Below, in pieces: positions 6,185-32,392 of a stretch of DNA of 64,000 nucleotides (position 1 is the stretch's first letter; every line of letters starts with the position of its first letter). This DNA comes from an uncultured Gemmataceae bacterium. Lineage in GTDB: Bacteria > Planctomycetota > Planctomycetia > Gemmatales > Gemmataceae. The stretch covers positions 1,088,001-1,152,000 of the forward strand of contig CAVVPN010000011.1 in NCBI GenBank assembly GCA_963750165.1, written 5' to 3'. The notes under the pieces are model-generated. The model had not been told where the DNA came from and ran no database searches. It saw nothing but the letters and a program-made list of their open reading frames with translations. Made by a program: the position numbers and the translations under genes.

Positions 6185-6187
6185 GGG

Positions 6188-6403: not shown

Positions 6404-6408
6404 CCCAG

Positions 6409-11006: not shown

Positions 11007-11041
11007 CTCCAGGAGCCGGCTGCCGGCCCTTGCTGATCTTG

Positions 11042-14143: not shown

Positions 14144-17100
14144 GCACTCTCTCCTTCCGCTGCCTTTACGATCTCGGCCCGGCCGATGACCACGCTGCCC
14201 TTGGCCTTCACGATCAGTTTGCCGAACGGATCCTGCACACGCAACAGCCGTGGGCTGGACGTGGCACAGTCGTAGACGACATAGAGCCAGTAGCGGTCGC
14301 GGTGGTTGCACGCCTGAACCCATTCGTTCTCCGTCAGTTCCACGTCGCCCTCGCCGCCCCGGCCCTTGACCTCGATGGCCCGCTTGCCCTCCGCCGGCCG
14401 CATCGACAGCAGGTCGAAGCCAGGGTTCGGCACCAGGCCCGCCAGCACCGCCCGGTCCGGCGTCGATACGTCCTGCACGGTGGCCCCGGCGGCGGCCTCG
14501 AAGGCCCAGGCGACCTGCACCGCCCTGGCCTCTACCTCGGCGTCGTGCCGTCGGCGGTCCTCGGAATCGGCGGTCGGCACCACGAGGGCGTGGGCCAGGA
14601 ACGTCACCTCGCCCGGCACGATCAGCTCGGGCTCCCGCCGCAGTACCGCCAGGGCTGCCTCCTTGCGGTCGGCAAGGGTCCGCTGCCGGTCGCGGATTCG
14701 CGTCACGTCGCCCCTGGCCCTGGAGTCGCCGGCCCTGGCCCTGTCGGTCAGCCGCGAGCGGGCGGTCGCCAGTTCGGCGTCCTGGTAGTCGAAGCCGCGG
14801 GAGACGAAATCCAGCCGCTCGGCCAGCGTCGCCAGCAACGCCTGCCGCCGCTCCGCCGCCATACCGGCCGCCACCACGCTGGCGGCGAATTCCCCGGCCT
14901 GGCCCCGCGACGGGGCTGCCTGCCCCGCCAGCGCGAATGCCTCCGCAGGCATCCCGGCCCCGCCCCGCAGCAGCAGGAGTTGCTCCACGGGGCACGGCTC
15001 GACAGGGCCACCCGCCTCCTGTCGCAGCCCGACCAGCCGGCAGTCCACCAGTTCCTCGCGGGCGAGTGCCGGCACCTGCGGATCGGCCTCCCGCACCACG
15101 GCCACCAACGCCAGGTGGAACAAGTAGGGCTTCGTGGCGTAGGGATCGACGAACACGCCGCCCCGCAGGGCCGCGTCGCGGAACTTCTCGCACACGAAGG
15201 CCCGCAGCCGATCGAAAAACGGCTCGCCGGGGTGCAGGAACACGCACGACTCGGTGTCGGCGGGCTTGGCCAGCGTCAGCCGCTGCCGCCTGGCGACCTC
15301 GTAGGTCTCCAGGGTCGGTCGCAGCGGGTCGAGGGCGTGGGGCGTCTTCTCCTTGATGGCGAAGAAGCCGTCCGGGTCGCCGTCCAGAGCCAGGCCCAGG
15401 AGCGGGGCGGACTGCACCACGAAGCGGCGGACGTAGCCGGGCAGCAGCTTACGCCAGCGTTCCCGCTCAAGCTGGGCCTCCTGCTCGGGCAGCTGGGACT
15501 TCACGTCGCCGCCGTCGCCGTAGAGCCGCTTCTCCCGCTCTTCCAGGGCCGCGACCTGCTCCTTCGTCAGGGTGCCTTCGATCCGCCGGTTGACGGCCTC
15601 GGCCCCCTCGTCGGTCAACGCCTGCTCCAGGTACTCCCGCAGCGAGACGCCCTCGAACAGCCGGCCAACCACGTCGAAGACCTTGTCCGAGTTCAGTTCG
15701 CGGCGGATTCGCTCCAGTTTGTCCAGCAGCGTCCGCAGCACCCGGCCCTCGCGGGTCTTGCCGGCCACGACGTTCAGGATGATCACCGGGTCGTGCTGCT
15801 GCTTGTAGCGGTGGATGCGGCCCATGCGTTGTTCTAGCCGGGCCGGGTTCCAGGGCACGTCGTAGTTGACCATCAACCAGCAGAACTGCAGGTTGATGCC
15901 CTCGCCGGCCGCGTCCGTGGCTACAAGGTACTTGGCCCCGCCGTCGGCCAGCGGCTTGCGGAAGAAGGAGACCTGCTCCTGCCGCTGCTTGTAGTCCATG
16001 CCGCCGTGGAGGCAGGCGATCTGGCCCGCGAAGCCGATGCCCTCCAGCCGCTTCACCAGGAACTCCAGGGTGTCGCGGTGCTCCGTGAAGACCAGCATCT
16101 TCTCGCCCTGGAACTGGTCGTCCTTCAGCACCTCGCGGAGCTTGTCGAACTTGGACTCGTCGCCGCGGTCGTGGACCTTGCGGGCCAGCCCCAGCAGTTC
16201 CTGCACACGCAGCCGCTCTGTTTTCAGGTCGGCCAGGGACACGGCGACGACACCGCCCAGCAGGTCGTCCTCGCGGACCTCGTTCTCCTCCCTGCCGTCC
16301 TGCGGCGTCTCCTCGTCGCCGGTCTTGGTGTCCAGCACGTCGTCGGCCTGGTCGAGCTTCCGCTGCCGGGCGGCCAGGTCGTCGGGCGTCAGTTCGCCGG
16401 ACTGGATGGCGTTGATGAGGTCGTCGAGGCGACCCAACCGCCGCTCGAAGGACCGCAGCAGGGCGAATGTCGAGCTGGCCAGCCGCCGCTGGAAGACGCT
16501 CATGGCCAGGCGGGCGGCCGAGCGGTTGAGGATGCGCGCCCGGTTGTAGAAGGTCTGGATGTAGTCGGTGGTCTGGTCGTAAAGCGTCTGCTCGCTGACC
16601 GGCCCCTGCGTCAGGTCGTAACTGAGCGTGTCGGACAGACGCCGGGGGTAAATGCGGCTGCCGTCGAAGCGAACCATCTCCTCCTTAGTGCGGCGGATGA
16701 AGTGCCGGCAGCGGGCGTCGGCCGGGTAGGCGTGGAAGGCGTCCACGGTGGCCAACGCCTCAGGCTCCAGCAGCCGCCACAGGGCGTAGTAGGGGAAGTC
16801 CTTGCCCATGTGCGGCGTGGCCGACAGCAGCAGGACGTGGTGGCCCGACCAGCCCAGCGACCAGCGTTCGTCGTCGGTGGGCACCCCGGTCAGGGCCTCC
16901 GCCAGCCGGTAGCGTTCCGTCCTGCGGATGGTGAAGTCGGGCTGTCGGTCGGCGGCCAACTTGTGGCACTCGTCGAAGATGACGAGGTCGTAGGGCTCGA
17001 CGCCCGGCTCCTGGAGCCGCTTGAACATCCGCTCGCCGGAGAGGGTGTCCACACTGACGATGAGGTGGTCGCAGCGAGCGCCGACGAAGGGGTTGCCCGC

Positions 17101-17487
17101 ACGGGCCTCGCCGCCCCCCACAATGCGGAAGGCCAGCCCAAACAGGTTGCCCAGTTCGCTTTCCCAGTTGCCGACCAGACCGGCCGGCGGGACGACCAGG
17201 ACGCGGCGGATGAGCCGGCGGGCGAGCATCTCGCGGATGTAGAGGCCGGCCATGATGGTCTTTCCAGCGCCGGCGTCGTCGGCCAACAGGAACCGCAGTC
17301 GCGTCTGGGGTAGGAGATGTTGATAGACGGCGATCCGCTGGTGCGGCAGCGGGTCGATCAGGGCTGTCTCGACGGCGAAGGCGGGGTTGAAGAGATGGCC
17401 GAACGCGAGCCGGTCTCCTTCGGCGACGACGCGGACGACCTCGGCGTCGGTCGCGAAGTCAATGGGGGTGGGCGAGGTCTGGTTCAC
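14140..17487 (-). CDS. SNF2-family helicase with C-terminal DUF3883 nuclease-like domain
   Basis: LPHQ, LLADDAGAGKT, DECH, SATPH, GEGINLQ, WNPARLEQRMGRIHR; C-terminal GFDL...IEVKGR...LTENEW...YWLYVV. Confidence 0.92.
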   Translation of the reverse strand: MNQTSPTPIDFATDAEVVRVVAEGDRLAFGHLFNPAFAVETALIDPLPHQRIAVYQHLLPQTRLRFLLADDAGAGKTIMAGLYIREMLARRLIRRVLVVPPAGLVGNWESELGNLFGLAFRIVGGGEARAGNPFVGARCDHLIVSVDTLSGERMFKRLQEPGVEPYDLVIFDECHKLAADRQPDFTIRRTERYRLAEALTGVPTDDERWSLGWSGHHVLLLSATPHMGKDFPYYALWRLLEPEALATVDAFHAYPADARCRHFIRRTKEEMVRFDGSRIYPRRLSDTLSYDLTQGPVSEQTLYDQTTDYIQTFYNRARILNRSAARLAMSVFQRRLASSTFALLRSFERRLGRLDDLINAIQSGELTPDDLAARQRKLDQADDVLDTKTGDEETPQDGREENEVREDDLLGGVVAVSLADLKTERLRVQELLGLARKVHDRGDESKFDKLREVLKDDQFQGEKMLVFTEHRDTLEFLVKRLEGIGFAGQIACLHGGMDYKQRQEQVSFFRKPLADGGAKYLVATDAAGEGINLQFCWLMVNYDVPWNPARLEQRMGRIHRYKQQHDPVIILNVVAGKTREGRVLRTLLDKLERIRRELNSDKVFDVVGRLFEGVSLREYLEQALTDEGAEAVNRRIEGTLTKEQVAALEEREKRLYGDGGDVKSQLPEQEAQLERERWRKLLPGYVRRFVVQSAPLLGLALDGDPDGFFAIKEKTPHALDPLRPTLETYEVARRQRLTLAKPADTESCVFLHPGEPFFDRLRAFVCEKFRDAALRGGVFVDPYATKPYLFHLALVAVVREADPQVPALAREELVDCRLVGLRQEAGGPVEPCPVEQLLLLRGGAGMPAEAFALAGQAAPSRGQAGEFAASVVAAGMAAERRQALLATLAERLDFVSRGFDYQDAELATARSRLTDRARAGDSRARGDVTRIRDRQRTLADRKEAALAVLRREPELIVPGEVTFLAHALVVPTADSEDRRRHDAEVEARAVQVAWAFEAAAGATVQDVSTPDRAVLAGLVPNPGFDLLSMRPAEGKRAIEVKGRGGEGDVELTENEWVQACNHRDRYWLYVVYDCATSSPRLLRVQDPFGKLIVKAKGSVVIGRAEIVKAAEGESA

Positions 17488-18461: not shown

Positions 18462-20158
18462 TCACCTGCGGTCAAAGAAGTGCCCGCCCCGCCCCCCGGT
18501 CTGGCCCCACCAGCCCTCGCCGCTGCGCTGGTCGCGGTCCTGTCCCGCCAGGGGGTCGATGGCCTGGTAGCCGCCATCAGGCATCTGGTGGTGGCACAGG
18601 GCCAGGGCGTCGGCGTCATCCGGGGAGCGGCCAATTTTCTCCTTCGTCTTCTCCTTCTTCTCCACGGCGCGCCGCCCGGTGGCGTCCAGTTCCCAGGTCG
18701 GGGCCAGCAGCTGCTGTTTCAGCCGGCGGAGCGTTTCTGCGTCCAGCCTCCCCAGGTGGATCATCCCTGACTTGGCTTTCTCCGCCGTCTCGAACCACAA
18801 CTCATCCCTTTTACGCGGGTACAGGTCATCGCGGTTGGCCCGCGTGCCCGCCCCAATGGCGTGGACGCGGTAGCCTGAGCTGCGCAAAAAGGCCGCGACG
18901 GCGTTGCCGGTGCCGTCGTCGTCCAGCTTGATCGGGATGTCCGTCGGCTTGGCCTGAGCGGCGCCGTGGGGCCTGTGCTGATTCACCAGGGCCGCCATCT
19001 CGGCGGCGGCGTCTTTGATCCTCGCGGTGATGCGGGCCGGGTCCATCGTGTTGGACGTCTCATGGCGGACGCTGACGGCACCCCACCGGCAATGCAAGGC
19101 GTAATAATCGTCTCCTTTCCCGGTCGCCATGTCCGCGCCGATCTGCGGCAGTTGGTTCAGGGGGAAAGCCGGGCAAGGCCCCCGCAGGCACGCCTCGAAC
19201 AAACTCGGCGACCACACGCCGTCGCCGGCGTCCGGGTCCAGGCCCAGGGCGCGCCCCTGGAAGATGGGGCCGGGGCGATACCAGCGTGGGGTGCGGCCGT
19301 GCTTCTGGCACCAGTCGAGCGGCGGCCAGCAGAAGTCCGTGGCCTTCTCGTCGCCGGCCTGCACGGGCTCGCACCAGTTCTGAATCCACTCCTCGAACAT
19401 GCGCAGGCTGACGGCGTGCGGGACCGGCGGCGGCAGCCCGTCCAGCTCGGCCAGCAGGTTCGGGTGGTTGGCGGCGCTGAGACGGAAGGTGTGCCAGCGG
19501 GGCGTGCCGTCCGCGGCGGCGCTGTTAGCCTCGACGTATGCCTGGGAGGTCGTGTTCGTCGGGTTGTAGATCGCTAACCAGGCGTGCCCCAGTGATGGGT
19601 CGAACATGCTGCGGGTGGCGGCCCAGTAGATCGGGTCGATGCCGTTGGCCTCGTCGAAGATGAACAGCATCTTCGGGCGGTGCCGCCCCTGGAACGACTC
19701 CCCCTTGCGTGCCGTGAACCCCTTGGCGTAATGGTCGTCGGAGGTGCGCATCTCCGGGCGCGCGGGCCGATGAAGTGGCACGGCAGGCCGGCCCGCTGCC
19801 GCTGCAGGCGGATTTCCGTCCAGAGCAGGTCCACGACGTCGCGCTCGGTCGGGGCCGTGGACAGCACCACCGACACGGCGAACGAGTCGTACCACCAGTT
19901 CGCCGCCACCGCGGCAATAAAGGTTTTCCCTACGTCGTGCCCGCTCGGCACCAGCACCCTGTATGGGGGGATCAGCAGGTGCCGCAGGATCGTCTCCTGG
20001 TCCGCGGTCAGCGTCGAGATTTTGAGAATGTCCCTGGCATAGCCTACGGGGTCGTCGGCGTAGTCGCCCGGCCCCTTCTGGCCCGGCGCCAGGCGCGGGC
20101 CTGCCTTGGCCTCCAGGGACTGCAGGACTGCCCGCCAAAATAACGCCGGGGATGGCAT
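18462..20158 (-). CDS. Terminase large subunit, split by a 1-nt frameshift near 19757
   Basis: Walker A SGHDVGKT in frame 19574..20158; Walker B LFIFDEA, nuclease IGADMA.G..D and C-terminal GRSPDDADAL in frame 18462..; one extra C in GCCC joins the frames. Confidence 0.8.
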
Positions 20159-20659
20159 TTACTTGTGCTCCAGGGTGTTCAACACGGCCTGGACATCGGC
20201 GGCGAAGGCGGCGTGCTCCGGCGGCGGCATCCGCTGGCAGGCCAGGGCGACCAGCTGGGCGCCGAGGGAGGCCACGTCCTTGACGCTCAGCTTGCCGGGG
20301 TAGAGGTTGAGCAGTTCGGTCTCGTCCTTGAGCGCCGCCAGCGCCGTCCGCAGGTCGCCGGTCTGCAGCGCCTGCGCGTACAGGGCCTGGCGCTTGGACA
20401 GGTGCAGCGCCAGCAGGTGGCCCTGCTGCTTGTCCAGGTTATCCTTCAGTTGCCTCCCGGCCTGGGCGATGTAATTCCACAGCTGCCGGTCACTTACGCC
20501 CCAGGGGCGCCCCGTTGCGGGGTCGTTTTCCGCAGCGTACTGCTTGATGTCGTGGAACTGGGCGCCCGCCAGGCGGATTTCCAGGACCTTGGCCACGCGC
20601 TGGGCGACCACGGCCTGGGTGGACTTCCTGGCCCGCTTACCCTTGCGCTTCGCCGGCAT
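20159..20659 (-). CDS. HTH protein, probable terminase small subunit
   Basis: RVAKVLEIRLAG...WGVSDRQLWNYI HTH followed by helices; abuts terL. Confidence 0.55.
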   Translation of the reverse strand: MPAKRKGKRARKSTQAVVAQRVAKVLEIRLAGAQFHDIKQYAAENDPATGRPWGVSDRQLWNYIAQAGRQLKDNLDKQQGHLLALHLSKRQALYAQALQTGDLRTALAALKDETELLNLYPGKLSVKDVASLGAQLVALACQRMPPPEHAAFAADVQAVLNTLEHK

Positions 20660-21263
20660 GGTTGGCCACCTCCGCGTCGATCCAGGCGGCGTGCCAGTCG
20701 TGCAGGCCGTCGTGGTGGAAGAGGGCGATCTGCTCCCGGTTGCTGTTGGTCCGCAGGTTGGCGGACCCCTCGAAGGTCAGTTTCCGGCCGTCGGCGAAGT
20801 GCAGGCACATCACCTTGCAGTGGTTGCGGGTGGCCGCCAGGCGGCATGCGCGGGCCTGCACCAACTCCCCGTGCCCGAACTGGTACTCCTCGGGGTTCTG
20901 CCGCCGGAAAAACGAGGAGCAGAGCAGCGTGAGAGCGACCACTTTGCCGGCGTCGATCAGGCCGGCCAGTTCGTAGACGTTGCGCTTGCTGAACGCCAGC
21001 ATTGCCACCCGCAGGCGGTCGCAGCGGACGGCGAACCTGTCCAGGACGACCATGAGCAGGGCGGTCAGGTCGTATCTGCCGGTCATGATGGCGTGGAGGG
21101 ACTCGCCCGGGGCGGGCAAGTGCGGCACGATCTCCGCCGCCTCGGCCAGCATGGCGAAGCGCTTCTGCCTGTCCCGGGCAGTGAACACGCCCGGCAGGGT
21201 GTCCAGGGCGCCCGGTGCGGGCTTGCGGCCGAAGCTCGGCGGCTTGATCTTGGAGAAGTCCAT
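20637..21263 (-). CDS. PLD/HKD-like protein (phage-type nuclease fold)
   Basis: NHCKV...EGSANL...N...EQ, i.e. the HxK...GSxN motif. Confidence 0.65.
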   Translation of the reverse strand: MDFSKIKPPSFGRKPAPGALDTLPGVFTARDRQKRFAMLAEAAEIVPHLPAPGESLHAIMTGRYDLTALLMVVLDRFAVRCDRLRVAMLAFSKRNVYELAGLIDAGKVVALTLLCSSFFRRQNPEEYQFGHGELVQARACRLAATRNHCKVMCLHFADGRKLTFEGSANLRTNSNREQIALFHHDGLHDWHAAWIDAEVANHAGEAQG

Positions 21264-21274
21264 CGGTGCTCCCC

Positions 21275-21427
21275 TCACGACCAGGATTGGCCGTTCTTGA
21301 ACCGGCCGGCTGGCCGCTTCTTGCCGGCGCCTTTGCCCCCACCCTTGGCGCCGCCCTTGGACTTCTTGGCGCCCTTGGCGTTGAAGCCGAAGCTGAAGTC
21401 ACCGATCTTGTCTTTGCTCTTGGCCAT
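21275..21427 (-). CDS. 50-aa Lys/Gly-rich basic protein (not in the ORF track)
   Basis: MAKSKDKIGDFSFGFNAKGAKKSKGGAKGGGKGAGKKRPAGRFKNGQSWS*; RBS GAGGAG. Confidence 0.65.
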   Translation of the reverse strand: MAKSKDKIGDFSFGFNAKGAKKSKGGAKGGGKGAGKKRPAGRFKNGQSWS

Positions 21428-21522
21428 GACTGCTCCTCGTTGTGAAAACCTCGTTGAGCGGCCCCGCGGGTCTTCTCGTAGGTCAAACGCCCCACATCGG
21501 GGCCGTCATCGCGTTCGGCGCT

Positions 21523-21759
21523 TCAATTGCTGTCCAGTGGCGGGCGGTTCCAAACCACCGCGCACCTGTCGCCGCAGCACACCAGGAAGCACGCCAGGCA
21601 ATAGCCGTGGCGCGGGTTGTAGTTGTAGGGCGGGTCTTCGTAGGTGAGTGCTTCTCCGAACCCATCGGGGCCACAGCCCACCACGGTGTGGTGCTGAATG
21701 CCTTCATCCCGGTCGTAGGGCTCGCCACAGCACCGGCAGATCAGAATGACAGCGCTCAT
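21523..21759 (-). CDS. Small Cys-rich putative Zn-binding protein
   Basis: CRCC...CLAC...CC; RBS AGGAG. Confidence 0.5.
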   Translation of the reverse strand: MSAVILICRCCGEPYDRDEGIQHHTVVGCGPDGFGEALTYEDPPYNYNPRHGYCLACFLVCCGDRCAVVWNRPPLDSN

Positions 21760-21800
21760 CTCCTGGGTCCTCCAGCAGTTCATGATTTCGGGTATTCATC

Positions 21801-24800
21801 TCAGCCGCCCCAGGTCGGGGCCGTCTTCACTTCCACCTCGACGGGCACCGGGTCGATCAGGGGCGCCATCGCGTCCACCATCGCCCGCTTGAGCCAGTCG
21901 GCCACCGTCGGCGCCTGGTCCTGGTCGCACTCCACCACGATCTCGTCGTGGACCGCCAGCACCGGGAAGGCGCCCGGCACCTCGGCACGGCGTTCCCAGA
22001 GCAGTGCCAGCGCCAACTTGAGGCCGTCCGCGCCCGTCCCCTGCACCGGGGTGTTGAGTTTTTCGGTGAATCGCGCGACGCCGCAACGACGCCGGCCTGC
22101 GAGGGTGCGCGTCTCGATGGCGTTCTTACCAGTGCGGCCCGCCTGGCGGTGCCAGCGCACCAGGCCGGGGTAGGCGGCAAAGAATGCCGAGCGGTACTGC
22201 TCCGCCTGTTCCGGGGTCAGCGTCAGGCCGTAGTTGCTGAGCGCATACAACTGGAACGTCTTCGCGCCCATGCCGTACAACAAGCCAAAATTAACGGCCT
22301 TCGCCAGCTGCCGGTGCTGCTTGGTGACTTCGGTGATCCCCATGACCTTCTGCGCGGTCAAGGTGTGCAGGTCGATGCCCCGCTGGTACGCCTCCAGCAT
22401 GGCCTTGTCGCCCGACACCTTGGCGGCGATGCGCAGCTCGACCTGGCTGTAATCGGCTTTCACCAGCACCCGGCCCGGCGGCGCCGCGAAGCAGCCGCGG
22501 TACTCGGGGCCGCGGGGCAGGTTTTGAAGATTCGGCGCCTTGCAGGCCATGCGGCCGCTGTCGGCCCCCAGTTGCTGCCACCCCGCGTACACGCGGCCGT
22601 CGCCGGAGACGTGCTTGAGCCAGTCGTCGCCGTAAGTACCGGCCTTCTTGCTGGCTGCCCGGTAGTCGCGCAGGAGGGCGGCGAGCGGGTGGTCGATGCC
22701 AGCCAAGGCGTCGTCGTCCGTGCTGGTGACCGTCACGCCCAGGCTCGCAAACACTTCCTGCGCCTGCTGGGGGCTCGACCAGTTCCAGGTGCTGCCGAAG
22801 TCGAGGACTTCCGGCTTGCCCGGCGCCAGGGCGTCCATTGCCGCCGCCAGCCGCTCGGCTTCGGCCTTCGCCTGTTGCGCCATCACCTGCCACCGCACTG
22901 CATCGAACGCCACGCCGGAGCAGGCCATCCAGACCACGGGCGGCAAACAGCGGCTCTCGATGGCGGCGGCCTGTTCCAATTTCGCGCCCTTGATCTTCAC
23001 GCGCAGCGCCCGGCACAGCGGCCCCAGCACGGCCGCGTCCGTCGCCGCGTAGGCCAACTGCTCGGGGGTGAGTACCGCCCGCGACCAGTCGGACTTCTGC
23101 TCGTCCTTGTCGATGGCCTTCCCCAGTTCACGCCGCACGCACGCTTCCAGGCTGTGGAATCCCCTGGGGTGTCGCGTGCCGTATAGCAACCGCGACAAGA
23201 GCATCGTGTCGTACACCGCGCCCGGCTCGAACCCCAACTGGCGCAGGAAGGCCAGGTCGAAGTACCCGTTGTGCGTGACGAGGATGGTCTGGGACAGGGC
23301 GGCGAACAACGGTTGCGGGTCCACGGCGGCGCAGTCCACCAGGTAGGTCAGGGAGCCCTCGACCGCCTCCACGTTCACCGACAGCAGCCGCAGTCGATCT
23401 GACCGGGGGTCGAGCCCGGTGGTCTCACAGTCCAGCCCCACCAGTTCGTTATCCGCGAGGGCGGTCAGGACGGCGCTGAGCCCGTCGGCGTCCGTGACGA
23501 GCATGTAGGGGTGTCCGACACCTGGGGTTTCGGGGGGCGTTGGGGCACTGACGCTGTCCTGGTCCTGGTGGCTGGCGGGTTCATTCGCCTGTTCCTCTGT
23601 CCGACGCCCGACACTTCCGACACTTCCCTGGTCCGTCTCCGCAGGTTGTTGCCCGGCTGCCGGTTGCGAACTGTCCTGTTTCGCGCCCCTTGAAGTGTCG
23701 GACGCTGAGCCAGGCGGTGCTGTCGGTGGCGCGGACGGGTTCTCCCCGCCGTCGTCCTCGTCGTCTCCACCCGAAGTGTCGGAAGTGTCGGGCGTCGGAT
23801 ACAGTTCCACGACTTTGATATTGCTAGCCTTCTTCCCAGAAGGGGGGTCGATCCAGCGGGCCACGCCGCCGTCCACAAGGACGCTCAGGGCGGCCTCTGC
23901 GTCCTCCCTGGTCGGGTACTTCTTGCTGTTGGCGCGCTGCAGTTCGCGGACGGTGATCCGCCCCCCGCGGGCCTGGATGAACTCGACCAGGCGGCGGGTG
24001 TCGCGCTGCTCCTCCGTCTCGGCCAGCGTCATGTAAATGCGCCGGGCCTCGTTGGCGAACCAGCGGCAGAGGGTGACGCCGGCCTCGACGCTCCTGGGGC
24101 TGACCTCCCGGCGGTCATCGACCTCCAGGTGGACGCAGGTGACGACGTGGTGCAGCAGGGCGAAGCGGGCGGCGTAGGCTTCGAGCTTGCTGTACGCGGC
24201 CGCCAGTTCGCCCTCGACGGCCATCTGCTCCTTGGCCCAGGCGTTGTAGAACGCTACCCAGTTCTCCTTGGCCTGCGGGTTCATGCGCAGGACGTGGGGT
24301 TGCTTCGGCCCGGTGTCCGCGTCGAAGTCCAACTCCAGCAGCCTGGCGATCACAGTCTGGTACGCCTGCTCGGTCTCCGGGGAGACATCGGCCTCGCTCC
24401 AACTCTTTTCCACCTTGGGGGGCATGGCCGCCAGCAGGCGGGCGGGCAGGCCGGAGTCGAAGGCGTCCGCGCCCAGGGCGCGGGCCAGGACGCCGGGCTG
24501 GATGCCGCCGACGACGGACACGGCGGCGCGGTCGATGAACAGCAAGGGCCGCTCGGGGTTCTTGCGGTCGATGACCGCCGTGCCGGCCCGGAAGAACTCC
24601 AGCCAGTTGGGCAGGTCGGAGCCGCCTCCCTTGCCCTTGTAGCGCGTGAAGCTGCCCAGCCAGCCGGACAGTTCGTCCCGCGCCATGAGTACCCCCCGCG
24701 GGTTTTCCTCCAGGACCACCCCCAATTTTTCAATGGTGGTGTCGCTGACGACGACCCGTCGCAGTTTCGGCTCCGCGGGCGGCTCCTCGTTGAAGTCCTC

Positions 24801-26066
24801 GCCGGCCTTCTTCGCCTTCGCCTTGCGGGACTTGTACTCAACCAGGGCGTCCTCGTAGGCTTCCTTCTCAGACTTGAACGACTCCAGCAGCTGCTTCTGG
24901 TGGCGGAACAGGAAGCCGACTGCTTTCTGAAAAGCTGGCGTCTTGAGCGTGCCGGAGTCGCCCACGATGGCGGCCCAGATGATGCACGGCTCCTCCCAGC
25001 TGCGCTTGAGCCGGAGCGACCGGGTGTTGCTGATGGTCGAGCCCACGGCCGCCAGCACGCATAGCGCCACGTACGCCGGGTCGCAGCGCAGGGCCTGGGC
25101 GCACTCGGTGACGTAGGCGCCCAGCGGCATCGGCAGCGCCTCAACCGGGAACGGCTGGAAAGGCGGCAGCGTCCGCACCCTGATCTTGGGCTTCGACCCG
25201 GCACCGTCGTTGCCGCTCGTCAGCCCCAGCCACTGCCGCACCCTGGTCGCCACCGCGCCGCCGGCGACGCCGAGCAGCTGCACCAGGCGCGGCCAGCCGG
25301 TGACCTTCTCGCCGTCCTCCACCTTGCGCTTCGCCGGGGCGGCCTTGCCTTCGCGCATGCGGACTTCCTCGTCGCCAGCGGCCAGGGCCACGGCGCCTAC
25401 GAACCGGGAAACGCGCTCGGCGTCCCAGTGGCGGGCCAGCGCGCCGCTCAGCGCCATGGCCGCCTTGTCACGGTTGCCTTGTCTCGGCCAATGGCGGGCC
25501 AGGAGCGCGGCCGCGGCGACTTCCCCCACGGCCTTCTGCAGGTCGTCCAGCGTTACGTTTCCCGGCTCGGTGAAGGACTCCCAGGCGATCTGTTCGCCGG
25601 TGTCCTTGTGCAGGCTGGGCGGGTAGACGGTCAGACCGCCGTCGCCGCGCAGCTCGCAGAGCATGGTGCCGTCGAGGTCGAGGTACTCTTGCTGCGCCTT
25701 GGGGAACGGGCGGTCCGCCGCGTAGATGTAGTGCGACAGCGGCGACGACGGGCGCCCGAAACGCCAGCCGGTGGGCGGGAGCAGGTGCGGGGCGACGGCC
25801 CGCGTCTCGGGGACGTCGAGGTCCACGTCCAGGCGGTTGCCGCTGGGGCTGCCGTTCAGGACGCCGACATTGCGGGGTTCGTGGCGCGGGAACCGTCCGT
25901 CAAGGTCGTCCGCAGTCAAGCGCAGGTGCTGCCAGTCGGGATAGCCGGGGTCTTTGCTGCGGGGTGGCAGCGGGATCGGGGCCAGGCCGCGCTGAACGTA
26001 CAACTCTGCGGCGTCGCGGACGTCCTTGGGGAAGGCGCCGTTGCGACTCGGGGTTGCAGTTGTCAT
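21801..26066 (-). CDS. Fusion of Prim-Pol primase, DUF3987 (YfjI-like) helicase, 3'-5' exonuclease and family A DNA polymerase
   Basis: N-terminal IPLPPRSKDP...NVGV...LDVDLD; GDSGTLKT and LMARDEL; exo DCETTGL, HNGYFD, YAATD; PolA DYSQVELR, AKAVNFGLLYG, VHDEI. Confidence 0.88.
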   Translation of the reverse strand: MTTATPSRNGAFPKDVRDAAELYVQRGLAPIPLPPRSKDPGYPDWQHLRLTADDLDGRFPRHEPRNVGVLNGSPSGNRLDVDLDVPETRAVAPHLLPPTGWRFGRPSSPLSHYIYAADRPFPKAQQEYLDLDGTMLCELRGDGGLTVYPPSLHKDTGEQIAWESFTEPGNVTLDDLQKAVGEVAAAALLARHWPRQGNRDKAAMALSGALARHWDAERVSRFVGAVALAAGDEEVRMREGKAAPAKRKVEDGEKVTGWPRLVQLLGVAGGAVATRVRQWLGLTSGNDGAGSKPKIRVRTLPPFQPFPVEALPMPLGAYVTECAQALRCDPAYVALCVLAAVGSTISNTRSLRLKRSWEEPCIIWAAIVGDSGTLKTPAFQKAVGFLFRHQKQLLESFKSEKEAYEDALVEYKSRKAKAKKAGEDFNEEPPAEPKLRRVVVSDTTIEKLGVVLEENPRGVLMARDELSGWLGSFTRYKGKGGGSDLPNWLEFFRAGTAVIDRKNPERPLLFIDRAAVSVVGGIQPGVLARALGADAFDSGLPARLLAAMPPKVEKSWSEADVSPETEQAYQTVIARLLELDFDADTGPKQPHVLRMNPQAKENWVAFYNAWAKEQMAVEGELAAAYSKLEAYAARFALLHHVVTCVHLEVDDRREVSPRSVEAGVTLCRWFANEARRIYMTLAETEEQRDTRRLVEFIQARGGRITVRELQRANSKKYPTREDAEAALSVLVDGGVARWIDPPSGKKASNIKVVELYPTPDTSDTSGGDDEDDGGENPSAPPTAPPGSASDTSRGAKQDSSQPAAGQQPAETDQGSVGSVGRRTEEQANEPASHQDQDSVSAPTPPETPGVGHPYMLVTDADGLSAVLTALADNELVGLDCETTGLDPRSDRLRLLSVNVEAVEGSLTYLVDCAAVDPQPLFAALSQTILVTHNGYFDLAFLRQLGFEPGAVYDTMLLSRLLYGTRHPRGFHSLEACVRRELGKAIDKDEQKSDWSRAVLTPEQLAYAATDAAVLGPLCRALRVKIKGAKLEQAAAIESRCLPPVVWMACSGVAFDAVRWQVMAQQAKAEAERLAAAMDALAPGKPEVLDFGSTWNWSSPQQAQEVFASLGVTVTSTDDDALAGIDHPLAALLRDYRAASKKAGTYGDDWLKHVSGDGRVYAGWQQLGADSGRMACKAPNLQNLPRGPEYRGCFAAPPGRVLVKADYSQVELRIAAKVSGDKAMLEAYQRGIDLHTLTAQKVMGITEVTKQHRQLAKAVNFGLLYGMGAKTFQLYALSNYGLTLTPEQAEQYRSAFFAAYPGLVRWHRQAGRTGKNAIETRTLAGRRRCGVARFTEKLNTPVQGTGADGLKLALALLWERRAEVPGAFPVLAVHDEIVVECDQDQAPTVADWLKRAMVDAMAPLIDPVPVEVEVKTAPTWGG
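23600..23799. repeat. Perfect 27-bp inverted repeat built of CCGACAC-like units inside the replicase linker
   Basis: TCCGACGCCCGACACTTCCGACACTTC (23600-23626) and its exact reverse complement (23773-23799); extra units near 23515 and 23692. Confidence 0.8.
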
Positions 26067-26251
26067 GGCTGGCCCTCCGCGCAGGCCAGCCCGTCCAGAG
26101 CGCCCAATTCCGCCAACAAATCCTCGGCGCGGTCGCGATCCAGGACGGGCCTCTTCTCGTGTCCGGTCCAGTAGGAGTGCCTCAAGAGGCGCCTGGCGTC
26201 GTCTGCTCCGACAATCTCGCTCAACTCGTCAAAGTCCGGGTAATCGCTCAT
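26063..26251 (-). CDS. Small hypothetical protein
   Basis: GGAGG RBS; stop overlaps the replicase ATG (ATGA). Confidence 0.55.
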   Translation of the reverse strand: MSDYPDFDELSEIVGADDARRLLRHSYWTGHEKRPVLDRDRAEDLLAELGALDGLACAEGQP

Positions 26252-26284
26252 AAGACGGCCCTCCATCTTTCTCGGCCGGGGCCG

Positions 26285-26653
26285 TCAGATGCCGAGTTTG
26301 TCCAACTCCGCGCCGGCGCGCTCGGCCGCCTTCAACCGCTTGCCGGGCGAACTCTGGCCCGGGGCCGATTCGCTGCTCGCCTGCGGGGTTTGAGCCTCAA
26401 GGAAACGTGCGAGGGCCATCGGGGTGCTGATGAACCGGCCGGCCAGTTTCATGGCCTCCAGCCGGACGCGGCCTCCCCCCAGAACCCTGACACCCTCCGT
26501 GACCCACCTGAAAACGCAACTGGGAGTCACGGCCTTGTCCTCTCGCGAGGGTGGCACCACTCTGGCGATCTGCCCCAGATATTTCCCGTGGCCGGCGGCA
26601 ATTTCCTCGGCCAACCGGCCGTCGGGCACGGTCGTACTCGTTAGCGCTGTCAT
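26285..26653 (-). CDS. DUF1580 DNA-binding (excisionase-like) protein
   Basis: V.PS.VFRW..GV....VRLEA.KLAGR..ST..AL.RF. Confidence 0.75.
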   Translation of the reverse strand: MTALTSTTVPDGRLAEEIAAGHGKYLGQIARVVPPSREDKAVTPSCVFRWVTEGVRVLGGGRVRLEAMKLAGRFISTPMALARFLEAQTPQASSESAPGQSSPGKRLKAAERAGAELDKLGI

Positions 26654-27031
26654 GTGGAACCTCGCACCTGGTCGCTCGTCTCCGCAACGCACGAGGGCGA
26701 GTGTGACACAGGCGCGCGTCCGGGAATTTCAAGGGGTTCGCGAAATAGCGAAGATGGCAAAACTATGAATGATAATGGTTTGCGGCAAAGACTGTCGAGA
26801 GACCGAGCTTCCGCAACAAATTTTTCTTGGCCGGGTTGCGCGGTGACGGGCTGGTGAATCTGAGTTTGTCCGCGGCGATGACGCCGTGCAGGTTGGGTCT
26901 GCCTGGATGACTGACCTTGAAACGGTTCTTGACGCCGCCTCTGATCGCCAGACAGAGTCGTTTAGCGGGGCTGCCTTGGATGGAAGAGAGATGGATGATT
27001 GGGCTTTGTTGCTGCTGTCCGCACAACCCGT

Positions 27032-28102
27032 TCAGGATGGCAGTATGTGGCCATCCTCGCGTTGTCGGCCAGAAAGCAGCTTCAAGGCTTTGTCAACGAA
27101 AGCTTCCGCACGCCGGGCCCGGTTACCCCAACCGAAGGCGACGTCGCAAACATTCGCCTGATTGTAAAAAATCCGCGCCGCCTTCGCGAGTGATTCGCCC
27201 GCGCCATCGAGATTCTGGGCGGCGCCGGCCACGAGCAGGTGTTGCTCCCTGGGTTTTGCAGCCAGGGTCTCTACCCTGGGCACCCGGGATGGGCGTGTCA
27301 GTCGAAAGATGTGTCGCAGCGAACCTTGCACCAGTTCCTCAATCGGCTCCGCGTTCTCAATCTCCAGTAAGAACCACATCGCGTCGTTAAGGGATGCTGC
27401 AGCCTGACGGAGCGACTTGTCCGCGGGGGAGATGCGTAGGTCTTTCTTTTTTCCAGGTTGCTTTGGCGGCGATGTCGGTTTGCCGAAGCCCGACGTGTTC
27501 ATGGAGTAGGTGCTTTCACCGCGCTTCACGTTCCGAATCTTCCTCGGTGCCTCGGGGTTCCCGTGCATCTGATCAAACTTCATTCGGATTCTCCGGACCA
27601 GCGTGTCGTGAGCGCCGCACCACGCGCCAATCTGCACGTTGGACAGTTCGTACCATTCTTCATCCCGCAACAGGGCGTCCACCGCGTATCGTACGGCCCT
27701 CAGCCGGTCGCGCGAACTCTGGTGTGCTTGTTTTTTGACGTTTACCTCGCACGCAAACGCGGCTGCGTTGAGGCGCGTGCCAGGCCGGATTTCGGCGTCA
27801 ACGTGAGGGCGGCCCGCACGGTGGTGCGCCGCCAGCCGGCGAAAGCCGTCCCCGAGCCAGTAGTTGTCCTCGGCGTCTTTGAACACGACCACTGGCTGGA
27901 GGTCGTCACCATCCAGCAGCGCATTCGCAAGCCGCTTCACGGACTCGTGGTGTATTTCCCGGACCTGCGTACTGCCCTGGGTGTTGATCCTTGAGATCGG
28001 CAACCTGATTCTGTGCGCACCGGCGGCCGTGGGCGTGTTCACCGGAATCTGTTGCCGAGCGGGCGCGCTGTTCCCGACCAGTTGCCGTTCGGGTGAGGGC
28101 AT
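27032..28102 (-). CDS. ParB/Srx N-terminal domain protein with HTH
   Basis: TQVR...LQPVVVF...YWLGDGFRRLAA...LSNVQIG..CG....V.RIR. Confidence 0.7.
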   Translation of the reverse strand: MPSPERQLVGNSAPARQQIPVNTPTAAGAHRIRLPISRINTQGSTQVREIHHESVKRLANALLDGDDLQPVVVFKDAEDNYWLGDGFRRLAAHHRAGRPHVDAEIRPGTRLNAAAFACEVNVKKQAHQSSRDRLRAVRYAVDALLRDEEWYELSNVQIGAWCGAHDTLVRRIRMKFDQMHGNPEAPRKIRNVKRGESTYSMNTSGFGKPTSPPKQPGKKKDLRISPADKSLRQAAASLNDAMWFLLEIENAEPIEELVQGSLRHIFRLTRPSRVPRVETLAAKPREQHLLVAGAAQNLDGAGESLAKAARIFYNQANVCDVAFGWGNRARRAEAFVDKALKLLSGRQREDGHILPS

Positions 28103-28263: not shown

Positions 28264-29572
28264 TTACCCGATCTCCCGCATGATCTCCTGCGCCTTGTTC
28301 AAGTCCCGCTCCGCGTAAATCTGCGTCGTCTCGACCCGGGTGTGCCCGAGGACGACCTTCGCGGCCTCGACGCCGTACTTCGCCCGGAGCCATGTCGCCG
28401 CCGTGTGCCGCAGCTGGAGCGGGGACCACTCCGGCACCCCTGCCGCCTTGCACGCCCGCACCACCGCTTGCCTGTAACTGTGCCGGGTGTAGCGCTCGCC
28501 GGGTGAGCGCCTGGGTTTTACCTTCCGTTTCCGGGCCAGTTGGCTCGGCTGGCGTTTGCTCTTGCGCAGCGCGGCACGTTCGGCGCGTCGTTCTTCGACA
28601 TGGGCTTTCGGGGAGAACAGGTATTCCTCGACGTTGGTGCGCAGGAACGGGCGGAGAACTTCCTGGGCCTGTGGCCCCAGGTAAATGAATCGGTCCATGC
28701 CGCGGTGGCGGTTCTTGTGCTTGAACGGCGAATAGGTCCAGACCGGGCCGGTCGTGTTCAGGTCAATGCCGCGCATGACCATCACCTCGCCGGCCCGCAT
28801 GCCGGTCAGCAGCTGCAGCCGAACCATCGCCGCGATCGGCGCCGGCATCTTCGTCAACCCCGCCTCGACGACCTCGACGGCCACGGGCTTGACGCCCTCG
28901 GCCTCCGGGGACTCGCTACGCCCCTTTTTCAGACCGGGCACAGCAGCAATGGCACGGTAGACGGTTTCAGGAACCATCTCCTCGGCGACCGCCCAGCGGA
29001 ACAGGCGGACGATGTGGCCGACGCGCTGGTTGATGACGCCGCGCAACAGCGCCTTCTCGGAGCCGAGCAGTTCGCCGGGCAGCCACTTCTCTTTCCACAG
29101 CACCTCGCAGCACTTCGCGGTCTGGCGGAAGCACTGCTCCCGGAACCAGCGCTCCAGGGTTCTCTCTTCCTCGCCCACTTTGAGCTTGAAACGGACGAGG
29201 TAGCGCCTGGAGTCGGCCATCTTCTGACGCACGGCCTTCAACTTGAGCGGGGAGAATTCCGCCGCCGGGAGCAACCCGTACAGGGCCTTGAGGGGTCGGA
29301 GCGAGAAGCGGAGGTTGTCAATCTCGTGGGTCGGGTTGCCGTCCACGTCACGGTAGTGCTGCTCGGCCCACCGCCAGAAGGCAAGGACCATCTCGTTGAT
29401 GCTGACAGATTCGGGTTGCTCGGTCGGGACGGGTTGTAGGCGCCGGCCGGCGGCGAGCCATTCAGCGATCAGCTTGTCGTAGGCCAGGCGAACGGCTTCC
29501 GGCGGGTTCTTCTGGCCGTCGGGCCAGTGGCCGAGGTAGTGGTCTTTCCCGTTGAGGGTGACCACGCCCAGC
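28264..29572 (-). pseudogene. Tyrosine recombinase/integrase, 5' end truncated by IS21
   Basis: GMRAGE, QLRH, LGH, TQIY catalytic residues; N-terminus begins mid-motif (GVVTLNGKDHYLG) at the IS end. Confidence 0.85.
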
Positions 29573-29904
29573 TGGTAATCGGCAAGCAAAACGGACCCGC
29601 ATCGGCGAGCAAAATGGACCCACCTGGGTTCAGGGGTTCACTGCCGAGAGCAGGGGTTGTGAACCAGCCCCCGGGCATTGCTCTTGTTCTGTCTGAGCGC
29701 GGTTGCTACCTTTCGGCCGCCGGGTGAAACGGAGTCGGGCTCTGCGGGGACGCAACCCGACAAGGGATAGCCCGGCCGATGGTGTGCCGATGGCACTGGG
29801 CCCCTCGCTCCACGTTGGTGGGCGAGCGGGCCGCCACCGTCATCGGACACCGGAGTTATGCCTCCCAAAATCCACCTCCCCATCTCCGGCGGCTGCATGG
29901 TTGC

Positions 29905-30679
29905 TCACTCGCCCTTCCTGCTCTTCTTGCTTTTCATCGACTCCCGGAAGCGGAAGCTTTCGCCATTCATCTCGAAGATGTGGCAGCGGTGCGTCAGCCG
30001 GTCCAGCAGCGCCGCCGTCATGCGCTCCCCCTGGAATACCTGGCCCCACTCGCTGAACGCCAGGTTGCTCGTCACCAGCAGGCTCTTGCCGCTCGTAGCG
30101 GTCGGCGAACACCTGGAACAGCAGCTCGGCGCCCGACGCGACTGAACGACAGGTAGCCCAGCTCGTCGCAGATCAGCAGGTCGGTGCGGTCCAGCTGGGC
30201 CAGCACGCGGTCGAGCTGGTACTGCTTCTGCGCCTCCTCCAGGCGCGTCACCAGCGCCGCCGCCGTGCAGAAGCGCACGCGCTTGCCCTGCCGGCACGCG
30301 GCCAGGCCCAGGGCGATGGCCAGTGCGTCTTGCCGGTGCCGGGGCTGCCGATGAGGCAGACGTTGGTCCGCTGCTCGATCCACTCGCCGCGCGCCAGCTC
30401 CAGCACCTTGGGCTTGCTCAGGGCCGGCACGGCGGTGAAGTCGAAGGTGTCGAAGTCCTTGTGGACCGGGAAGTCGGCCTGGCGGATGCGTGCCTGCACG
30501 GCGTTGCTGGCGCGGGCCGCGACCTCCAGTTCCGTCAGGCGCAGCAGGTATTGCTCGTAGCCCTCATTGGCCTGGGCCGCCTCGCGGGCCAGCTTCTCGA
30601 ACTCGGCGTGCATCGTGGGCAGCCGCAGTTGCTTGAGGTTGCTCTTGAGCAGCAGTTGGGTGTTGGCGTTCGCGGTCAT
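29905..30679 (-). pseudogene. istB: IS21 helper ATPase IstB (frameshifted)
   Basis: LKQLRLP, GSPGTGKTH, LLICDELGY, TSNL.FSEW, AALLDRL, GESFR spread over three frames. Confidence 0.88.
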
Positions 30680-32202
30680 TGTCCTCTTCTCCTCGGGTAA
30701 GTAGTTGGTCGAACCGGCCCAGGTCGGGCCGGGGGACCTGGTACTGACGTAGGGGTGTCACTGACGAGTGACAGTGGGCTGTCACTGTTTCCGCGGCCGG
30801 GCGTGCCTCGGCCAGCCGCGCCACCGCGGCGATGATGCGTTCGGCCTGCACGGGCTCTTGCAGCAGGCCCTGCTCCACGGCCTGTTGCACGCGCTCCAGC
30901 GGGTGGTCGGCCAGCAGTTGCAGCACGCGGATGTAGTGGCGCGCCCCGGCCCGCGCGCCGTGCCGCTTCTCCAGGGCCTCGCCGCAGCCGCGCGAACGAC
31001 GCGGGCAAGACGCCAGTCCTGCAGGACCGGGGCGTGGTCCAGCGCCGCCGGCCGCCGCCCCAGCGCGGCCAGGTAGTGCAGCGGGTCGAGCAGTTGCTCG
31101 TCCCGGCCGTAACTGCGCGGGTGCCGCGCCACCACCCGGCCGCCGGCTACCACCTCGACGCGCTCGACGTAGCCCTTGACGGTCACCGCCTGGTAGGCGC
31201 AGGCGCGCGGCACGCTGTAGCGGTTGCGGTCGAAGCGCACCGTCTGGTACTTGTCCACCTGGGCCGGCTGCGTGATGCAGGCGTCGAAGGGCCGGGGCGG
31301 CAGCGGCAGCGCCTCGGCCCGGTCGCGCCCGAAGCGCTGGCCGATCGACTCGGCGTAGCCGGCCACGGTGCGGCTGGCCTCGCGCAGGCAGCGCTCGCGC
31401 AGGGTGAGGTTCGAGCGCCGCCAGGTCGGCGACCTGCGGCACCGGCGTGGCCCACTGCCGTTGCAGCACGCGCACCCGGGTCTCGGCGTGGGGCTTCTCG
31501 TTGCCGCGCGCCGGCATGCAGAACAGCGGCTCGAAGGTGTAGTGGCTGGCCAGGGCGGCGTAGCGCTCGTTGGGCCGGCGCTCGCGGCCCCGGAAGATCT
31601 GGCGGACCACGGTGGTCGGGTTGTCCCACCAGACTTCGTGGGGCACACAGCCGAAGAAGGCGAAGGCTTCGACCAGGCCGGCGAGGATGGCCTCGGTGCG
31701 CTCGGTGGGCATGGCCATGGCGAACGGGTAGTTGGAGTAGGCCCAGGCGGTGACGAGCACGGGCACGAGGCGGCGACCGTCGGGGAAATCGACGTGGATG
31801 TGCCCGAAGTCACACTCCAGGCGCTGCCCGGGATCGTGTGCCAGTGGGATGAAGGTCTCGCGGCGGTCGCGGCGCTGTTGGCCGACGTAGCGGCGGACCT
31901 GGTCGTAGCCGCCCTGGTAGCCGTGCTCGGCGCCCAAGCGGCGGAAGATCTGCATGGCGGTGTGGCGCTGCTTGGGCGGCGCTTCCTCGTCGGCGGCGAG
32001 GATGGCGTCGATGGCAGCGCGAAAGGGGCCGAGGACGGGGGCCGCAGGGGGCTGGGTGCGCGTGTAGGGCCTGGGCTGGGCCTCGCGGAGGATCTGCCGC
32101 ACCTTGCGGCGCGAGTGGTGGAAGGTGCGGGCGATGTCTCGGATACTCATGCCGTCGCGGAAGGCGCAGGCGAATCTTGCCGTAGTCGTCCACCGTCAGC
32201 AT
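30676..32202 (-). pseudogene. istA: IS21 transposase IstA (frameshifted)
   Basis: MSIRDIAR HTH, ECDFG, WDN, NEKPHAE, VDKYQTVRFDRNRYSVP across several frames. Confidence 0.88.
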
Positions 32203-32392
32203 CCTTGCCTCCGTTCTCCAAAAGCTCCAGGTTGTGGAGCCTCCAGTAGAACGGCAGCGGCTGGGGTGGGTCCATTTTACTCGCCGATCTCGGGCTTACA
32301 GGTGGGTCCATTTTGCGCGCCGATAACCAGCGCCTGCGCAACATGCTGGCCACAACAAACCGTCACCTGGTCGCGCAACACCCCCAGATTTT

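Follow-up and report, generated by a model that had tools for sequence, protein, structure and literature searches.

A single gene in a 64,000-nucleotide stretch of DNA (64 kb; hereafter the window) from an uncultured Gemmataceae bacterium of the phylum Planctomycetota joins a primase, a helicase, a proofreading exonuclease and a family A DNA polymerase (PolA) in one chain. We consider it moderately probable that this gene, P0001, is the replicase of an integrative island, and that the DNA coding for the tether within the protein doubles as the element's replication origin. Judged by analogy with known replicons, the candidate origin would consist of 9-base iterons in two sets that face each other, next to the point where the gene is richest in AT. 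The fusion itself is not new, as it is already in print, and the window protein is a new member of a fusion family that has been noted but is biochemically uncharacterized; taken alone, the domain fusion would be a catalogued curiosity. If our proposal is true, the gene would be among the smallest self-contained DNA replication modules, with appeal for work on minimal replicons and for isothermal amplification without primers. It would also offer a concrete account of how a multi-enzyme fusion originates, namely by read-through across an origin located 3' of a helicase gene, and a rule for locating origins in uncultured mobile elements, which would be to look just past the coding end of the winged helix.

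Domains and motifs of the fused replicase

The open reading frame (ORF), its parts and the candidate origin occupy the following positions in the window. Model-based entries refer to an AlphaFold (AF2) model and its predicted local distance difference test score (pLDDT).

21801..26066, minus strand: replicase ORF P0001, ATG start, 1421 amino acids (aa), uninterrupted
25551..26039, minus strand: AEP Prim-Pol catalytic domain, residues 10-172 (PF09250; mixed alpha/beta; AF2 pLDDT >88)
25227..25550, minus strand: all-helical bundle following the primase, residues 173-280 (AF2 helices 173-279 at high pLDDT; match to 3m1m)
24027..25154, minus strand: DUF3987 AAA+ helicase core, residues 305-680 (PF13148, phrog_2373, Foldseek matches to MCM)
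23796..24014, minus strand: winged-helix-like C-terminal domain of the helicase, residues 685-757 (AF2 element order)
23511..23795, minus strand: disordered linker, residues 758-852 (AF2 pLDDT ~33 from residue 759)
about 23515..23840, no strand assigned: candidate origin, comprising an iteron array of CCGACACTT, an inverted repeat and a low-GC stretch (repeat and GC scans)
22932..23510, minus strand: 3'-5' proofreading exonuclease, residues 853-1045 (PF01612; Exo I-III intact)
21804..22931, minus strand: family A polymerase domain, residues 1046-1421 (PF00476; motifs A/B/C intact)

We scanned the protein against Pfam using the curated gathering scores, listing further families down to E<=0.01. 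The scan returned Prim-Pol (PF09250, residues 21-164, 41.9 bits against a cut-off of 22.8), DUF3987 (PF13148, residues 328-678, 242.3 bits against a cut-off of 27, covering profile positions 2-362 of 364), DNA_pol_A_exo1 (PF01612, residues 855-1025, 94 bits) and DNA_pol_A (PF00476, residues 1090-1420, 241 bits). No fifth family appeared at this E-value limit, a 5'-3' exonuclease domain was absent, and there was no match to Toprim, DnaB or DUF927 (PF06048). Similarly, PHROGs named the parts DNA primase, DNA helicase (phrog_2373) and DNA polymerase. An earlier reading of the window, made from its letters without database searches (the sequence-only reading), had proposed a single polypeptide that unites a primase, a helicase, a proofreading exonuclease and PolA and that lacks a 5'-3' exonuclease. 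The Pfam domains, their intact motifs and the recurrence of the architecture among homologs (see below) bear out the former claim, and the Pfam scan agrees with the latter. If the primers are made of DNA, the absence of a 5' nuclease would be explained.

All motifs named by that reading are where it had placed them: DVDLD at residues 80-84, GDSGTLKT at 369-376 and ARDEL at 462-466 in the primase and helicase; Exo I at 878-885, Exo II at 932-938 and Exo III at 1006-1012; and polymerase motifs A, B and C at 1205-1212, 1252-1265 and 1372-1377. Across 24 aligned fused homologs, the residues that are invariant or nearly so include D80/D82/D84, H112, K375 and E465 in the primase-helicase, D879/E881, D937 and Y1006/D1010 in the exonuclease, and D1205/E1210, R1252/K1256 and D1374/E1375 in the polymerase.

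The AF2 model of residues 1-800, built with 30 aligned sequences, reached a mean pLDDT of 87.2. In the Prim-Pol domain, motif I (D80/D82/D84), motif II (H112) and the motif III region (E138/R140) are at least 90% conserved in the 24 fused homologs; the choice of the catalytic acidic residue within motif III is one that we infer. Foldseek matched the Prim-Pol region to the pRN1 prim-pol 1rni (E 7e-4, TMt 0.61, root-mean-square deviation 4.0) and to pRN1 3m1m (E 5e-4, 329 columns spanned). The helical bundle at residues 173-280 is, as modeled, probably PriCT-like or similar to the pRN1 helix bundle, and a short low-confidence hinge (residues 285-293) lies between it and the ATPase body. The Walker A motif of the helicase, GDSGTLKT (K375), has the deviant form typical of DUF3987, Walker B is D464/E465, and R543 is invariant; K375 and E465 are invariant in both the 24- and the 30-sequence alignments, and D464 in the 30-sequence alignment. 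The helicase body matched many MCM chains (E 7e-4 to 1e-2, probability 0.97-1.00) with low template modeling (TM) scores (0.2-0.46), which reflect the use of the entire multi-domain model as the query. DUF3987 has previously been placed in superfamily 6, with a winged helix-turn-helix at the C terminus, and linked to MCM by profile comparison (PMC4889955).

Past the helicase core, the model runs through helix 685-698, strand 703-705, helices 706-712 and 720-732, and strands 736-739 and 752-755, which fits a winged helix in its secondary-structure order only. By analogy with other replicons, this domain is presumed to bind the origin. The linker that follows is of low complexity and rich in P, S, G, D and A, and its sequence is not conserved among fused homologs; in 133 four-part homologs, the gap between helicase and exonuclease varies from 39 to 260 residues (median 94). 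The replicase frame keeps a G+C content at third codon positions (GC3) of 0.73-0.94 in every 100-codon block, linker included, which is well beyond chance.

Over its full length, the C-terminal stretch of ~570 residues can be aligned with polymerases of solved structure, and matches in the PDB are limited to residues 854-1420. The closest of these are 8jrb (E 6e-75) and the Prex apicoplast polymerase (7sxl/5dku, E 5e-74), with canonical Pol I more distant (Klenow-type 4e-44, Taq 1e-40). By sequence comparison, the PolA part thus belongs to the Aquificae/apicoplast polymerase clade. The top NCBIfam model, NF011539 (PRK14975, 'bifunctional 3'-5' exonuclease/DNA polymerase'), scored 603.7 bits, a little below its cut-off of 640, and on this score the part is a near relative of PRK14975 and not a certified equivalog. 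The motif B phenylalanine, F1260, is invariant; Hot Spring PolAs likewise retain it (PMC10201439).

A repeat array in the linker DNA

The DNA that encodes the linker carries 9-base repeats arranged with dyad symmetry. Exact copies of CCGACACTT lie on the plus strand at 23608 and 23617 (in tandem) and on the minus strand at 23693 (central) and at 23774 and 23783 (in tandem), and degenerate ones lie at 23515 and about 23599/23792. The 64-kb window has no exact copy of this 9-mer beyond these five, which fall within 184 bases (23608-23791); 0.71 copies were expected by chance, and none of 100 shuffles reached five. An inverted repeat of 32 bases (23595-23626 / 23773-23804) is 94% complementary, with arms 146 bases apart, and its exactly matching 27-base core surpasses in length every other inverted repeat within 300-base spans of the 64 kb. 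The replicase gene outside the linker has no inverted repeat longer than 10 bases; elsewhere in the window, the runner-up exact inverted repeats measure 22, 20 and 19 bases (~60800-61200, 63400-63900 and 37400-37900). As the arms encode unrelated peptides (DTSDTS and GSVGSVG), the symmetry resides in the DNA and does not stem from a peptide repeat. The array begins within a few bases of the coding end of the winged helix, its two iteron sets are opposed, and the lowest-GC 40-mer of the ORF (0.45; 23801-23840) adjoins its right arm. Tandem-repeat and GC scans of 17000-30500, where we also sought an intergenic origin, revealed only a modest GC dip at 26600-27600, the repeat rows at 23608 and 23773 being the iterons themselves.

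Relatives of the gene carry comparable arrays. In six of the seven fused genes of the family, the longest inverted repeat of the gene (14-27 bases) is located in the linker, and 0 of 300 shuffles that preserved codon position matched its length. These arrays show mirror symmetry and spacings of 9 bases (in tandem) and ~21 bases, whereas the sequence that is repeated varies between elements. In unfused Prim-Pol/DUF3987 genes, arrays start just past the part that encodes the winged helix and often straddle the stop codon. Among 23 unfused loci with a winged-helix match, seven have repeats of 12-35 bases that no shuffle equaled (0/100), and for seven more at most 5 of 100 shuffles did. Finally, in two of four fusions from Verrucomicrobiota, the longest repeat lies just before the exonuclease, again with a 9-base period.

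This placement corresponds to that of self-loading initiator-helicases. The winged-helix domains of Rep from Staphylococcus aureus pathogenicity islands (SaPI) bind iterons directly downstream of rep, in two opposed sets (PMC9371898), and the minimal replicon of pRN1 requires 166 bp downstream of orf904 (PMC4234260). SaPI Rep/PriRep and pRN1 ORF904 are initiator-helicases that end in a winged helix, with iterons or an origin 3' of the gene and a primase fused or adjacent, and they belong to integrative or plasmid-like elements; the window protein, with its putative winged helix and candidate iterons, would resemble them in this. Because the array sits where these systems have theirs, we take 23515-23840 as the likely origin. 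The differences are several: SaPI Reps are assigned to the superfamily III clade, and their origin is outside the ORF and has an AT-rich center, whereas the window combines a DUF3987 helicase with an array that is translated as a linker, has a spacer that is not AT-rich and is followed by a polymerase. By this analogy, the candidate array would be a variant of the SaPI/pRN1-type replicon, the added feature being its translation as a linker.

The repeats could also be real without being an origin, serving as an operator through which the winged helix regulates its own gene, forming a structure in the mRNA by which translation is slowed or split where the helicase half meets the polymerase half, or representing a by-product of slippage or template switching. 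The linker is of low complexity and variable in length (39-260 residues), the spacer between the arms is not AT-rich, and 27 exact inverted bases would pair in RNA too, all of which suits such an explanation. We nevertheless find it unlikely. Arrays with differing sequences occupy the same position in six of the seven fused relatives and in no fewer than 7 of the 23 that are unfused, which points to selection and not to accident, and the 9-base and ~21-base spacing with dispersed copies is typical of iterons bound by a protein, not of a hairpin. For the unfused relatives, a role in translation is unlikely, as their arms straddle or follow the stop codon.

The island and its proposed replication

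The genes surrounding the replicase are consistent with an integrative island.

28264..29589, minus strand: tyrosine integrase, 441 aa (Phage_integrase 1.3e-15; phrog_1 2.7e-25)
27032..28102, minus strand: protein with a ParB N-terminal-like domain, 356 aa (ParB_N 1e-4, below the gathering score; phrog_1033 7.8e-9)
26285..26692, minus strand: small conserved companion gene, 135 aa (adjoins the replicase or helicase in metagenome loci L113, L119 and L133)
26063..26266, minus strand: ORF of 67 aa, its stop sharing 4 bases with the start of the replicase (no family match)
18462..21783, minus strand: four downstream ORFs of 86, 213, 166 and 558 aa, without clear function
7677..17487, minus strand: complete set of Hma-type defense genes, as cargo (PADLOC; Pfam DUF1156, DUF499 and helicase domains)
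14140-17487, minus strand: HmaA helicase (PADLOC 1.3e-153; SNF2/DEAD, NOV_C end)
about 11042-14130, minus strand: HmaB methylase (PADLOC 2e-119; DUF1156)
7677-11006, minus strand: HmaC ATPase (PADLOC 1.9e-68; DUF499)
29578..32324, no strand assigned: IS21-family insertion (Pfam rve and IstB_IS21; inverted 23-base terminal motifs at both ends)

The integrase gene is 2.2 kb upstream of the replicase, and the order integrase, 135-aa gene, replicase or helicase recurs in the metagenome contigs L113 (fused) and L119 (unfused). On one flank, infC (4175-4804) represents host DNA, so that the island measures ~25 kb from infC to the IS21 insertion, which sits directly against the integrase start. The sequence-only reading had described a small integrative element; the integrase supports the integrative part, and 'small' is uncertain given ~25 kb and the lack of attachment (att) repeats. 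Of the traits of a phage satellite (similar to phage-inducible chromosomal islands, PICIs), which are an integrase with att sites and genes for packaging or interference, the integrase is present, att direct repeats were not found, and the sole hint of packaging is the 558-aa ORF (18462-20138, minus strand), which has no Pfam match and a weak match to the terminase large subunit (phrog_2, 1.9e-8); this terminase-like ORF may indicate that the island has a role in packaging.

We propose the following course of replication. The element would excise from the chromosome, and the winged-helix domains would bind the iterons, allowing helicase rings to self-load in opposite orientations. Prim-Pol domains would then lay primers, which the tethered proofreading polymerases would extend, with ligase, SSB and topoisomerase coming from the host. 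The idea of the sequence-only reading that the replicase is self-sufficient found no support in the neighboring genes, among which ligase, SSB, clamp and topoisomerase were not found. The fusion would most likely have arisen by read-through of a primase-helicase gene, across the origin at its 3' end, into a downstream polymerase gene, in which case the linker would be former 3'-tail or intergenic origin DNA that turned coding and is constrained as DNA and not as protein. The origin of phage lambda, which is located inside gene O, provides a precedent for an origin within an initiator gene.

A bolder version of this proposal holds that the ORF alone is a complete one-gene replicon, whose circle would need only host ligase, SSB and topoisomerase, that linkers are under selection for their iterons, and that read-through is a general route of polymerase capture; this extension we regard as rather doubtful.

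Several observations weigh against the linker being the origin of a replicating island. The spacer between the iteron sets has a GC content of 0.69 and is not AT-rich, unlike SaPI origins, and the AT-rich stretch is beside the array and not central. The fused relative L107, one of the seven, has no clear linker array, nor do two of the four Verrucomicrobiota fusions, and 9 of the 23 unfused loci, mainly the most distant relatives, are not significant. We found no att direct repeats in 1-40000 or between 3300-8000 and 29500-33300; with the IS21 insertion placed against the integrase, this copy may no longer excise. Related genomes mostly do not share the genes that flank the fused gene, and no integrase was seen within 10 kb of it in L105 or L106. 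Helicase polarity differs between the comparators: AgaPH, a DUF3987 helicase, moves 5'-3' (PMC11724360) and SaPI Reps are reported to move 3'-5' (PMC9371898). The Prim-Pol of Thermus ICETh2 was dispensable for replication of its element (PMC7693054). Lastly, our literature search recovered no binding, unwinding or replication data for members of the fused family. Nor did it recover a publication that names the DUF3987 middle module in the fusion, tests its activity or places an origin inside it; this search did not extend to the supplements of PMC10201439.

Could the protein instead serve defense or repair, synthesizing on incoming or damaged DNA, and have no part in replicating the island? 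Such roles have been proposed for Argonaute-linked Prim-Pols and for the Thermus ICETh2 Ppol (PMC11724360, PMC7693054). A comparable pair comes from a Seonamhaeicola element, in which AgaPH (PriCT-DUF3987) has been shown to act as a helicase, to bind its Prim-Pol partner AgaPP and to stimulate it (PMC11724360). As in the window, a Prim-Pol is found with a DUF3987 helicase on an integrase-bearing island with defense genes; unlike the window protein, AgaPP and AgaPH are two separate proteins without PolA, the Prim-Pol itself being the polymerase. AgaPP has repair-type activities (PMC11724360), a mutant of the ICETh2 Ppol replicated normally and took up far more foreign DNA (PMC7693054), and an Hma system is located directly downstream of the replicase on the island. 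Even so, we judge this account quite improbable, since the winged-helix helicase, the cognate-looking iterons, the integrase and the high-fidelity polymerase form a coherent replication module, and the iteron arrays change along with the element, as replicon specificity predicts.

The 135-aa companion received a protein-atlas feature score of 0.96 to DUF1580 clusters, a lead only; it is possibly DUF1580-like and could be a regulator or an excision factor. The 166-aa downstream ORF has a counterpart beside the replicase in L105 (36% identity). An ADP-ribosylglycohydrolase gene (6409-7572) adjoins the Hma set. The IstB of the IS21 insertion is a short one of 143 aa that covers positions 2-107 of a 238-position profile, and an IS5-family transposase lies at 35083-35907.

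Distribution of the fusion and its polymerase clade

A word-seeded protein search returned 583 matches at E<=0.001. Among the 120 of these that were listed, local domain matching found the four parts in the same order in 112, and the remaining eight comprised helicase, exonuclease and polymerase. The listed homologs are on separate contigs and share 46-68% identity, and three are labeled Gemmataceae bacterium. We also ran an exhaustive search with residues 300-1421 against representatives at 50% identity and classified the best 150 matches. Fused forms among these included 23 with four parts, 10 with helicase, exonuclease and polymerase, and 6 in which Prim-Pol, exonuclease and polymerase accompany a different middle module. 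The others were exonuclease and polymerase only (67), DUF3987 only (34), Prim-Pol and DUF3987 (6) and partial (4).

These split forms, encoded as separate genes (67, 34 and 6 of the best 150 representatives), would suit a polyprotein from which post-translational cleavage releases a primase-helicase and a polymerase, as reported for Prex, whose fusion has been termed a polyprotein (PMC10201439); the long disordered linker would suit it as well. In that case, the replisome would at no time work as a single chain. However, we saw no protease gene and no conserved cleavage motif in the linker, and many of the 'split' matches may be truncated metagenome genes. We therefore give such processing little credence, while noting that it is compatible with an origin in the linker DNA.

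The genome from which the window derives (9.6 Mb) has a single fused gene and a separate canonical PolA. Outside the window, it has further DUF3987- or Prim-Pol-type matches (C11:787680-788999, C2:27522-28643, C6:50626-53111, C11:2149025-2149480 and C12:84864-85190), and these sequence matches suggest that more such elements reside there. Of 36 other genomes from its family, 4 have a full or near-full-length fused gene, and one of these 4 has two copies. The second copy, L106 (G419:C4), is split near residue 200, at ~12048-12249 in the locus, which leaves a Prim-Pol ORF of 247 aa and a remainder of 1240 aa; on its sequence, this would be either a frameshifted pseudogene or a natural split. That the fusion of the window might be an assembly or frameshift artifact joining adjacent genes, a concern raised with the sequence-only reading and for which the split in L106 could be cited, is excluded for practical purposes by the same four-part order in one frame on independent contigs (112 of the 120 listed homologs), the high GC3 through the linker and the fused genes in four other genomes of the family.

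In a sample of 400 further genomes of the phylum, searched with a stricter first pass, no match extended past the helicase part at E<=1e-100, a count that is a floor. No record covered at least 80% of P0001 among at least 5000 matching records of a phage collection or among 185 matching records of a plasmid collection, where the closest genes were cyanobacterial 'bifunctional 3'-5' exonuclease/DNA polymerase' genes. Viral contigs scanned with the N-terminal 800 residues as a single query yielded no relative, and those scanned with an N-terminal alignment yielded three loci, all unfused helicase forms. A further 80 genome-contig loci obtained with the full-length alignment were set aside, as generic PolA motif patterns had drawn in ordinary or distant PolAs that are uninformative on the fusion.

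In a sample of 301 Verrucomicrobiota genomes, four had PolA matches that fell within open frames of 1323-1530 aa. The four translated fusions (1462-1493 aa; L143-L146 in genomes G606, G567, G756 and G522) consist of Prim-Pol, ~700 residues, exonuclease and PolA. Their middle module had no Pfam match, showed no profile similarity to DUF3987 when aligned with hhalign, and lacked a canonical Walker A detectable by a simple pattern; its AlphaFold model was too poor to classify (mean pLDDT 47.8).

Fusions of this kind have been described before, which tells in part against the sequence-only reading, since that reading named an already characterized family as grounds for its refutation. Czernecki et al. 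(2023, PMC10201439) reported an AEP primase-polymerase fused to PolA of the Aquificae-like cluster #8 ('Hot Spring 1') in ~7% of bacterial members, and recorded such fusions in Planctomycetota, Verrucomicrobia and Nitrospirae. These share with the window protein the N-terminal AEP Prim-Pol, a PolA from the Aquificae/apicoplast clade that has proofreading, and the phylum, and the window protein is almost certainly one of them. In the portion of that account accessible to us, only the AEP part is named, with no mention of DUF3987, winged helix, linker or cis element, and activity was not assayed. Together with the phage fusions of PMC4889955, this report establishes precedent for the architecture, though we found no biochemical characterization.

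Known relatives differ in their front ends. Prex of the Plasmodium and Toxoplasma apicoplast has the same order of primase, helicase, exonuclease and PolA, and its PolA is closely related, but its front end is a TOPRIM primase with helicase domains (PMC10201439) in place of the AEP Prim-Pol and MCM-like DUF3987 of the window, and it is a nuclear-encoded organellar enzyme as opposed to a mobile-element replicase. The independence from Prex asserted by the sequence-only reading therefore stands for the primase and helicase families (AEP and DUF3987 versus TOPRIM) and fails for the PolA, a close Prex relative (5e-74). A DUF927-exonuclease-PolA polyprotein (OS3173 Pol / 'Pyrovirus') is known from hot-spring Aquificae viruses (PMC7689252). 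It resembles the window protein in joining a helicase-type N-terminus to an exonuclease and a related PolA and in having fused and unfused relatives; it differs in its DUF927/COG5519 helicase and in belonging to tailed-phage genomes and not to an integrase island. Two phage proteins also unite primase, helicase and polymerase in one chain, Pas55 of Actinoplanes phage phiAsp2 (SF3 helicase, DnaG primase and PolA) and gp55 of Lactococcus phage 1706 (SF3, AEP and PolB) (PMC4889955), with a different helicase superfamily and a different primase or polymerase family.

Overall, sequence comparison indicates one polymerase clade joined to different front ends. Among selected representatives, Pfam identified the same polymerase clade behind Prim-Pol with D5_N and DUF5906, behind DUF3631, and behind a DEAD-box helicase; P0163 has a front end of DUF3854 and DUF927, and another front end consists of a CHC2 DnaG-type zinc ribbon with ~600 unannotated residues. 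In a FastTree phylogeny of 97 exonuclease and polymerase segments, fused, unfused and other-fusion rows were intermixed, and the Prim-Pol + DUF3987 label required at least 10 changes. Because truncated metagenome genes probably account for many of the rows, we give no count of fusion events.

Three members of the polymerase clade (P0153, P0178 and P0224) carry a C-terminal DNA methyltransferase domain of the D12 class or N6_N4. Members of a sister clade have 500-850 residues ahead of the polymerase, with at most a CHC2 DnaG-type zinc ribbon as Pfam match (P0199, P0218, P0225, P0226, P0230, P0232, P0244, P0245, P0250, P0253, P0254, P0258 and P0264-P0267), and these N-termini are, to judge from their sequences, probably unrecognized primase-helicase modules.

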